A stretch of DNA of 64,000 nt from a virus. Taxonomy: Duplodnaviria; Caudoviricetes. The notes below the pieces were generated by a model. That model was given only the letters and a program-made list of their open reading frames with translations, searched no databases and was not told the origin of the DNA. The translations under genes were made by a program, and so were the position numbers. Location: the IMG/VR virus record IMGVR_UViG_3300032227_001172, positions 96,001 to 160,000 of that record; one strand, 5' to 3'. The stretch's first letter is position 1. Every line of letters begins with the position of its first letter. Below, one piece after another: positions 1 through 3,000 of the stretch.

Positions 1-3000
1 TGTTCGTAGCTGTCGTAAATTCTTCACGTCCGAAGCTAACCCTCTTCTCTCATTCTTACTTAATGATTTACTATTAGATAGACCGAGATTAATTGGAGCA
101 GCGTCTGTGAAATATTTTTCTAGTGTATCTTTTGGTTGTGATGATCCTCCAGCTGCAAACTTTACTCTACCACCGTTATTAAATTTATTAGGATTTTCAG
201 TAAAATATCTCTCGAACTCAGTTCTTGCTTTTTCAAAAGAACTACCATCTAGTGTTCTTTTAACTTCTGTTTCTATATTAGGTGGAAGATGAAATAAAGA
301 AGATGCGTTTCCGAGTCCATCAGGAAAATCTATGGCCCTATTACTTTCCAAAGTATCAATATTTAATCGATATCCTAATTTTTGAGCTAATGCCTGCTCT
401 AATAAGGCCCCCTCAATATTGCCTTCTCCAGTTTTAGTATACATTTTTGTATCGTCAAAAGATTCTGGTTCTTTATATCGATATGTATCAATTCCTCTTT
501 TTTTTGCTACTTTAATATTGTCTTCATTATCATCAATAAATCTTTCAAAAGCTGCTAAATTATCTGCTTTTGCTTTAGCAATATTAGTTCCTAATCCTTG
601 ACTAACCCCGGTAACATCTGAAGTTTGATATGGTAGTCCGAATCTATTTAATGTTGTAGCAACTAGATCAGCTGTGCTCTGTGGTCTGGCTGTTAATACT
701 CTAGTAAATCTTCTAACGATTCCAGGATTTTTTTTCTCGACCTCGGCTAATCTTTGTGCAAGTCTTGTCGGTTTGGCTTGAGCTAAGCTATCCGCTACTT
801 TATCTCTTATAGAATAACTAGGAAGATCCTCTGCTCCGGTCTTATCAACCATTTTTGTACCAAATGCTAATGTTTCATCAAAATCTATAGCTAATGGTCT
901 AAAAGGTCCAACTATTTGTTTGTCTGTCTGACCAAGTGGCCCCAAAGCTTCAGTAGCAGTAGTATCTTTAGCAAAATCTAAACTGGTTTGCCTTTGTTTT
1001 TCTCTTAGCCTTTGAACGTCTGATAAATATTCTTGACCAAACCCACGAATCATAGCAACATATTTTTGACCATCAAGTGGGCTATCTGGTCCAGTACTTA
1101 GTGTCCATTCCTTATCTTTTGCATAGCCTATTGGCTGTAATCCTGCTATAGCAACTTTCCTTATGCCTCTTATGCGATCTTCTTCATTTTTTGCTGCTGC
1201 TTTAGCTTTATTAAGAATACCAGCAACAACCAATGAATCAAGTTTACCAGAAATAATACTGTCTTTTCTAATTTTTCTTTGTAAATTTCCTGGAATACTA
1301 ATACCACGGCTTTTTATACCAGCTTCACCACCAAGATCCGACAATGTTTTTACCATAGCATCAGCTATAGCTTGTTCGATAGACTGATCTTGTTTTTTAT
1401 TTCTTAAAGCAATCTGACCAATCTCTCCATATAGTCCGACACTTGTTGTATCAGACTCTACCAAGTCTCCGTCCATGAATTTTTGAATAATTCCTCCTGT
1501 GGCTTTATTTTTAGGACGAATTGGTTTGCCTAACCCTTCTATTATTTTTTGATCATATACAACTGCCATTTGTTCATCTAAGTCTTTACCAGCTATTTTT
1601 TTGGCGCCACGTATATTCCTTTTAACCATTTCTTCTCTTATTGCTTGAGATGCTCTTTCTAGTGCTTTGTATTGAGGATCAACCTCTCCCTTCTTGCGAA
1701 GTTCAGGTTCCATTTTTTCTGCTAAATGTGCAGTCATAAATTCTACAACACTGCCGAAAGGCGCTGTCTTTAAATTTATTCCACTAGTCGGTATCTTTTT
1801 GGTTTTAAAAATATCTTGAATAGCCGGTAGAACTTTTTTAGATATTGGTGCAGATGCTTCTGGAAAACCAGATATTCCATCTTTAATTTTTACAGGATAA
1901 ATACCGCCCTTACCTCCAGTTCGCCGCATACCTCTTCTTGCATAGTCAGCAGCAAGACCTTCTTTATTTAATCCAAAATAAGCTCCAGCGCCTAGTAATC
2001 CACCGGGACTTTTAGTTACATCTAATTCCTCTAAATCATGACCGGTACCATGATAAAGTGTTTGATCAGTTACTTTACCACCCCTAGGGAATCTTTGAAC
2101 TTGTCCTCCCATTAATGTGTCTGCTATCTGATTTGGCACAAAATCTCTAGATTGTGTCCCACCAGTACCTGTCGCAGAACGAGAACTAATCTCTACAGGC
2201 CTAGGAGACCATAGTTTTTCTCTAGTCAGTATACTTTTAGCTATGTCCGCAAATCTATAAATTTGTTCATCTCTAGAAATATATCCTGGTGGCTTGGGAG
2301 GATCTGCTTTTCGCCCTACCTCTTCTTTAAAAGCTTTTCTAATTTCATTTTCTACTTTAGTAGGTATATTGGCTATGCCTTGTCTTTTGACTCTACTACT
2401 AATTTTATCAGCATTGGTTCCATATAATAAAAAAGGACTATTCAATGCTTGCTGAAAATCTGGTAATGTTATATGCCCAGAACCTTTTCTGCGCATAGCA
2501 TTATTAAAAGACTGTGGTAATGCTATAGTAAAATTAGGTAAAACTTGTATATCTTCACCATTTAAAATACTTCTAATTCTTGTACCAATCACTCTTTGTC
2601 CAGATACTCGCTCGTATTCTTGTGGGGTTACTGGCCTACCATACCTTGTAGGATCTATAGCATGCGCTCTAACAGTAGGTTCTTGCGGATCATATCTTAT
2701 AGCTGTAGCATCTTTTACTGCCCGTTGTTTTTCTTCGTCTGTACGATTATCTTGAACTATAGGATACAATCCATCTTCTGGCCTTGAGTTTCTTATGCGT
2801 GCTCTTCTACTAACGCCAGCTGCTGTATTGCTGCTTCCCGCCATAAATTTTTGAATAGACCCACCACCATTATTCATTCTAACAAGATTACCAGCACCAT
2901 ACTTTTGTACAGCGCTCTTTCTCATGACAAACTCACCAGGAGTTAGCATAGCAGGAACACTGTCAGTATTTCCGGCACCGGGTACACTGCCACCTTTTGC

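Follow-up and report, generated by a model that had tools for sequence, protein, structure and literature searches.

ADP-ribosyltransferase (ART) domains are already known from giant virion proteins of phages; they were reportedly predicted in 2017 in phage polyvalent proteins and have been discussed as head-packaged cargo, and we know of no member of the ART-PolyVal family that has been assayed. This family (PF18760; N4-ART/Tox-ART-HYD2 clade; prototype CBX87992.1) resides in giant, multi-domain, virion-associated phage proteins. It is defined as H-Y-D (in other words, by a histidine, a tyrosine and an aspartate), and the presence of ARTs in polyvalent proteins of the virion is well established (Iyer et al., PMC5512222). 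The present analysis deals with residues 838–1028 of a giant phage protein (P0002), encoded at the start of a window of 64,000 nucleotides, which is the whole stretch of DNA analysed (bases 96001–160000 of the 230,691-bp Caudoviricetes record IMGVR_UViG_3300032227_001172, which has direct terminal repeats and is rated 100% complete). An initial annotation, whose view of the open reading frame (ORF) was limited by the window, proposed here an ART of the H-Y-E type (histidine, tyrosine, glutamate) within a tape-measure protein; in the full record, the ORF spans L002:3363–18596 on the minus strand and encodes 5,078 amino acids. The best reading of the domain is a divergent offshoot of ART-PolyVal, forming one globular cargo module between glycine-rich linkers.

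Other described systems provide points of comparison. The best solved structural match is found in gp27 of cyanophage A4 (A-4L), a protein seen physically inside the virion as part of the pre-ejectosome; the paper on this structure does not mention the ART identity of gp27 residues 1418–1604 (PMC12002296). AcrIF11 (6KYF) is a small diphtheria-toxin-like ART with an inserted variable helical region and the non-canonical key residues H-F-H-D (PMC12421852). T4 Alt is a pre-made ART delivered with phage DNA, but it belongs to the R-S-E (arginine, serine, glutamate) Alt/VIP2 clade, is packaged in the head and is a separate protein. In PARP10, PARP14, PARP15 and PARP12, a hydrophobic residue replaces the catalytic glutamate.

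Fold and kinship of the domain

The fold was derived from an AlphaFold2 model built on a joint alignment of 68 sequences (the small family described below together with canonical ART-PolyVal domains), with a predicted local distance difference test (pLDDT) score of 95.1 and a predicted template modelling (pTM) score of 0.89. A first run with 7 sequences gave a pLDDT of 64.7 and was set aside because its core was poorly modelled. The retained model comprises a strand at residues 844–851 (YHG), a strand at 872–875 (AYFG), a helix at 881–893 (AADYA) and a strand at 898–905, then three helices (923–932, 947–968 and 974–992), which bear out the helical insert proposed in the initial annotation, and finally strands at 997–1000, 1010–1013 and 1019–1022. 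Comparison with VIA-align gave chain B of the cyanophage A4 pre-ejectosome (9K3A, residues 1418–1604) as the top match (Z 11.8, 166 residues aligned), and every row among the 50 matches listed is an ART or A4 gp27, including tankyrase 2 (TNKS2; Z 8.0, 117 residues aligned) and PARP14, PARP10, PARP15, PARP12, PARP1 and ParT (Z 7–8). The second match found by Foldseek in the PDB is 6KYF (AcrIF11; E 4.6e-3, probability 0.99), and the BFVD entries matched by the structure bear the names PolyVal ADP-ribosyltransferase or ART-PolyVal-like (TM-score up to 0.68, E down to 2e-6). On this modelled structure, residues 838–1028 are established as an ART fold of the ADP-ribosyl clan, with a predicted split β-sheet core superposable on solved ARTs.

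Similarity to A4 gp27 extends over 166 of the 191 residues, helical insert included, and its sequence displays LYHGT, GTYFS and GVDA; unlike P0002, it keeps the aspartate (in GVDA). The two proteins also differ in that gp27 is a head-internal ejection protein of a podophage, not a tape-measure protein, and identity is 16%.

Taken by itself, sequence similarity to known ARTs is suggestive but sub-threshold. Pfam ART-PolyVal matches the isolated domain at E 1.2e-4 over profile positions 8–57 only, with 23.3 bits against a gathering threshold of 31.2 bits, and it is the top match for five of seven family members, always below threshold (two members also touch DUF3990). Searches of PDB sequences with phmmer and hmmsearch, using the single domain and the 7-sequence family alignment, gave no relevant match, while the nearest clusters in a protein language model are ART-PolyVal (0.83–0.86), which is only a lead. 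To go beyond the Pfam profile, a canonical set was seeded from the published prototype (CBX87992.1), an RNA polymerase carried in virions of Roseovarius Plymouth podovirus 1 (RPP1), and enlarged by two IMG/VR scans to 65 non-redundant domains. In giant proteins, the hidden Markov model (HMM) of this set scores with its N-terminal half alone. Profile–profile alignment by hhalign of the 7-sequence family with 16 canonical ART-PolyVal domains gave a probability of 96.4% (E 1.2e-9; query 8–210, template 3–131), and the joint profile matches diphtheria toxin, cholix toxin, PARP10 and PARP12 among PDB sequences. Kinship of residues 838–1028 with ART-PolyVal over the full length, helical insert included, is established.

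Both share the same order of elements, namely a vYHGtG strand, a GxYF strand, an A..YA helix, a strand followed by proline, a variable helical insert, a G-x-x-G strand and a v-v-[FY]-D..I strand. In the canonical domains, the insert varies from 0 to ~110 amino acids at the place occupied by the three helices of P0002. Differences are a loop of eight additional residues (DGISGFPE) that follows strand 3 in P0002, the active-site substitution discussed below and the nature of the carriers, which for ART-PolyVal are head-packaged RNA polymerases or MuF-type proteins and here is a tape-measure protein. A chance resemblance of motifs in a non-ART fold could be argued from the partial, sub-threshold Pfam match and from the mediocre pLDDT of the 7-sequence run. 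However, the RPP1 prototype domain likewise matches PF18760 at positions 5–70 only (41 bits), and the full-length profile–profile match, the high-scoring model, the ART-only structural list and the ART-PolyVal-named BFVD matches refute this explanation, the probability of which is vanishingly small.

The family itself is tiny and always found within very large proteins, since phmmer, run exhaustively over 1.84 billion protein representatives, gave only five other carriers, all long: 7,872 (with two copies), 5,532, 2,544, 1,401 and 1,013 amino acids. A sixth (P0008; 5,517 amino acids) came from a word-indexed search of 90% clusters restricted to whole-protein length. Altogether, the family numbers eight domain copies in P0002–P0008 (carriers of 1,013 to 7,872 amino acids), and the carriers are of tape-measure type where that could be checked. 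The largest, P0003, has two Asp-less ART-like copies, at residues 908–1104 and 5337–5555. An IMG/VR scan with the family alignment revealed a single locus, L004, the domain of which is almost a copy of the second one in P0003. In word-indexed searches, the 'longer' setting gave P0007 only and the 'near' setting nothing; no standalone form of the domain appeared in these searches, which is weak evidence given their length limits. No relative was detected in a metagenome scan with the 7-sequence alignment, nor any match by tblastn of the domain in 50,697 GenBank phage records.

NAD pocket and active-site acid

The strings on which the initial annotation relied are all encoded on the minus strand in the translation of window positions 1–4596: TLYHGT (846–851), LGAGAYF (868–874), AADYA (882–886), GGIYPVKI (898–905), RNIRGAK (993–999) and DEQMAVVYDQKII (1007–1019). 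Its residue numbers and codon coordinates for H849, Y873 and E1008 are correct as well (Table 1). As to the H-Y-E reading drawn from them, the assignment to the H-Y-x (diphtheria toxin/PARP-like) class of ART folds and the kinship with ART-PolyVal are upheld, and the glutamate is not, for want of conservation.

The part of the site associated with binding of nicotinamide adenine dinucleotide (NAD+) is well preserved. Y848-H849-G850, G866, G869 and Y873 are invariant in the family down to 35% identity, and residue 885 is Tyr or Phe. The Y848-H849-G850 motif aligns with YHGT of diphtheria toxin. Invariance of the pocket His and Tyr at such divergence argues for continued binding of a nucleotide ligand.

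The acid presents a different picture. Within the canonical ART-PolyVal domains, the sole invariant acid is the Asp of the GyDG motif (65/65), and this Asp is taken as the functional acid of the family because the column of Met1010 is variable in the canonical set, with an acid in 17 of 65 domains. In the alignments made by hhalign and MAFFT, the GyDG Asp column holds Arg996 in P0002, Ala in the first P0003 copy, P0004 and P0008, and Pro in the second P0003 copy and P0005–P0007. The GyDG column was also considered as the equivalent of the PARP glutamate and rejected, the aligned ranges putting this Asp on the preceding strand.

To locate the catalytic-strand position, the structural rows of PARP1 (853–1005), TNKS2 (1020–1155) and PARP10 (876–1004) were used, which start in register with His849 and end 17 residues past the catalytic residue, paired with residue 190 or 191 of the model. 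Range arithmetic would then place PARP1 Glu988 opposite Met1010, and AVVYD opposite YIVYD. The hhalign alignment with the diphtheria toxin A fragment puts VEYINNW on the MAVVYD strand and agrees within one residue, although it is weak and of low confidence, and hmmalign of the same fragment to the canonical HMM left its C-terminal half unaligned. In AcrIF11, an essential Asp115 stands at the catalytic loop, as against Met1010 in the corresponding strand of P0002; the two proteins resemble each other as phage ARTs with a variable helical region within the fold and non-canonical key residues (AcrIF11 being an anti-CRISPR), and differ further in that AcrIF11 is a free protein of 132 amino acids made after infection. 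As for PARP10, PARP14, PARP15 and PARP12, they share the ART fold (Z 7.4–7.7), the His and the Tyr, and a strand motif that AVVYD resembles; they are nevertheless distant and eukaryotic (14–17% identity), and Met1010 corresponds to their Ile/Leu according to aligned ranges only.

In the initial annotation, Glu1008 was the catalytic glutamate of a classical site as in diphtheria toxin and PARPs. Its column over the eight copies holds E, G, G, G, E, Q, S, G. Support for a classical H-Y-E enzyme comes from the presence of Glu1008 itself, with Asp1007 just before it, from the second P0003 copy, which also has Glu there, and from N4-like ART-PolyVal prototypes with Glu in register (GEIMVVKRD in RPP1 versus DEQMAVVYD in P0002). 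However, the three nearest relatives (equivalent giant proteins) have Gly (LDGQM), and the remaining copies have Gln, Ser or Gly. The end-anchored PARP1, TNKS2 and PARP10 ranges select Met1010, 17 positions before the last aligned pair, the diphtheria toxin alignment points to the same strand and, in the model, residues 1006–1008 form a helical turn outside the strand. The ranges put Met1010 at the catalytic-strand position, so that Glu1008 would lie at –2, off that position; kept in two of the eight copies, it does not qualify as a conserved catalytic residue. A classical enzyme is argued against by the lack of a conserved acid and is considered very unlikely. In other ARTs, the –2 position opens the [QE]xE motif. 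As the N4-like clade has the same E-x-M register before its last-but-one strand, Glu1008 may still matter in P0002, though not as a family feature.

With the pocket His and Tyr kept and no acid conserved, an acid-independent mono-ART, carried as a divergent ART-PolyVal cargo module, is a proposal that we judge to have an even chance of being right. According to this proposal, the domain would still bind NAD+ and act as a mono-ADP-ribosyltransferase without a fixed catalytic acid, like the H-Y-I/L enzymes PARP10, PARP14 and PARP15. In P0002 specifically, assistance may come from Asp1007 and Glu1008, two acids of the loop. The helical insert might serve target recognition, as proposed for AcrIF11, and upon infection the module would exit the virion along with the tape-measure protein, to act early on a host protein or nucleic acid. 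To judge from the architecture, delivery would occur together with the tape-measure protein. Enzyme activity of the domain is no more than plausible.

Several points weigh against this proposal. Besides the Pfam score below threshold, the GyDG Asp is replaced in 8 of 8 family copies, no conserved acid is present on or just before the catalytic strand, and the residue equivalences come from aligned ranges and alignments, not from superposition. Since the replacements of the Asp vary, it is suggested that the function of this site was lost rather than moved. Passage of a folded 190-amino-acid domain through the tail tube, or into the cytoplasm, would also have to be assumed. Finally, another ART-like module, of the R-S-E type and to all appearances intact, is present in P0002 and could make the domain at residues 838–1028 dispensable as an enzyme.

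The same features feed the alternative of a pseudo-enzyme, that is, an ART-PolyVal descendant without catalysis that acts as an NAD+/ADP-ribose-binding, target-binding or structural module of the tape-measure polyprotein. The family-defining Asp has become Arg, Ala or Pro in every copy, no acid is conserved near the start of the catalytic strand (where Glu1008 varies and Met1010 is invariant), invariants proper to the family (D859, F911, R987, M1010, D1015, P1025 and P1028) suggest a changed role, and the second ART-like module of P0002 has the STS and ExE motifs. On the other side, it is difficult to see why His849, Tyr873 and the surrounding glycines would be invariant at 35% identity if there were no nucleotide ligand, and the best structural matches include PARP10, PARP14 and PARP15; H-Y-hydrophobic PARPs of this kind are active mono-ARTs. 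Loss of catalysis is an alternative to be taken seriously, though less likely than not.

The tape-measure carrier and its genome

The N-terminus of P0002 is, by its profile matches, a genuine tape-measure module: in addition to the Pfam match listed in Table 1, residues ~40–600 are covered by PHROG tape-measure families (phrog_28 and phrog_4211 at E 1e-21). The placement of an ART-like domain within a tape-measure protein, as first annotated, agrees with these PF10145 and PHROG matches and with the fold of residues 838–1028. By the PHROG matches of a neighbouring ORF, the gene adjoins tail-fibre/baseplate-like genes; the seven ORFs between this 1,102-amino-acid ORF and the tape-measure gene have no PHROG match. 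A second giant ORF (4,589 amino acids; window 18835–32604, minus strand) belongs to the same block of structural genes. No match to PF04984, the tail sheath family, was obtained in the whole genome, which is weak evidence that the tail may be non-contractile. Megablast of the ORF returned a 65-bp match to a marine virus and nothing else.

P0002 is a large multi-domain protein with tape-measure, HAD-like, second ART-like and HExxH modules. Because of the last three kinds of module, it fits the notion of polyvalent proteins given in PMC5512222, here on a tape-measure chassis, and its make-up is that of the carriers known for ART-PolyVal, which are large multi-domain polyvalent proteins of virions or delivered by conjugation. 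The second ART-like module lies just beyond the window start and matches Pfam ADPrib_exo_Tox with 16.5 bits, under the cut-off of 23.4. The C-terminal half of P0002, outside the window, contains two HExxH zinc-peptidase-like motifs (HELRH and HEAAH), a weak DUF6782 match and several copies of a spacer of ~65 amino acids including GTDTVPAMLTPGEFVVN. Linkers of the form GGx[VI]x[KRH]FxxG occur in five copies between cargo modules (window 148–174, 1468–1497, 2080–2109, 2836–2865 and 2992–3021, minus strand), two of which bound the ART-fold domain.

Table 1. Location of the domain, its key residues and the other features discussed (window positions, unless a locus is named)
Feature	Position	Strand	Remarks
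ART-fold domain, residues 838–1028	1513..2085	minus	model md9a957fdf038, pLDDT 95.1
His849, YHG motif, strand 1	2050..2052	minus	invariant in family and in 65/65 canonical ART-PolyVal domains
Tyr873, GAGAYF, strand 2	1978..1980	minus	invariant in family; aligns with Tyr54 (GFYST) of diphtheria toxin
Tyr885, AADYA, helix after strand 2	1942..1944	minus	Tyr/Phe in family; aligns with AAGYS tyrosine of diphtheria toxin
Three-helix insert, residues 923–992	1621..1830	minus	place of the variable insert in canonical ART-PolyVal domains
Arg996 (N-I-R996-G)	1609..1611	minus	column of the invariant Asp in the canonical GyDG motif
Glu1008	1573..1575	minus	candidate catalytic Glu of the initial annotation; not conserved
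Met1010	1567..1569	minus	invariant in family; PARP1 Glu988 equivalent by end-anchored range arithmetic
Asp1015 (VVYD)	1552..1554	minus	invariant in family; matches PARP1 IVYD993; not the catalytic position
Gly-rich linker GGQVQRFPRG, residues 830–839	2080..2109	minus	N-terminal boundary of the ART-fold domain
Gly-rich linker GGIIQKFMDG, residues 1034–1043	1468..1497	minus	C-terminal boundary of the ART-fold domain
P0002 ORF, first 1,532 codons of 5,078 amino acids	1..4596	minus	runs off window start
Tape-measure module, residues 192–383	3448..4023	minus	PF10145 PhageMin_Tail, 78.6 bits (cut-off 33.2)
HAD-type phosphatase-like module, residues 1299–1394	415–702	minus	DFDET motif; phrog_415 'polynucleotide kinase', E 9e-4
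Second ART-like module, R-S-E (Alt/VIP2/C3) type, residues ~1558–1699	L002:13500–13925	minus	GFVSTS and EENEFIL motifs (STS, ExE)
Tail-fibre/baseplate-wedge/virion-structural ORF, 1,102 amino acids	10269–13577	minus	phrog_2576, E 3e-65
A4 gp27 (Anabaena phage A-4L)	L090:20116–25269		ART-PolyVal-like H-Y-D domain with helical insert at residues 1418–1604

Implications for phage ARTs

The novelty lies in two features: the carrier is a tape-measure protein, and the active site, in a sub-family with very few members, lacks the Asp and bears a Met. Of all phage proteins, the tape-measure protein leaves the tail first. As regards the literature, the term 'tape measure' is absent from the text of PMC5512222, the word 'tape' is absent from a 2022 NAD-ADPr survey, and a 2021 jumbo-phage survey uses 'tape measure' once, as general background unrelated to ARTs. 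P0002 places an ART-PolyVal-type domain in a tape-measure protein, and the active site of this domain departs from the rule of the family: the Asp is gone, and a Met probably stands where the Glu would be. The ART-PolyVal-like domain of A4 gp27, so far unannotated, gives the family a first experimental structure to work from.

A bolder proposal, speculative and on the unlikely side, is that these copies represent an undescribed Asp-less branch of ART-PolyVal that retains the NAD pocket and exists only as giant-protein cargo. Its members would be either tail-delivered mono-ARTs with Met at the catalytic position (substrate-assisted, PARP10-like) or NAD+/ADP-ribose sensors or decoys injected before the DNA to blunt host NAD-based defence. 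If this were true, tape-measure proteins would be vehicles for cytoplasm-directed effectors, beyond cell-wall enzymes. Were the domain dead, it would be a clear-cut case of a pseudo-ART in a phage; activity, on the other hand, would widen the catalytic repertoire of phage ARTs and point to a tail channel able to deliver host-modifying enzymes.

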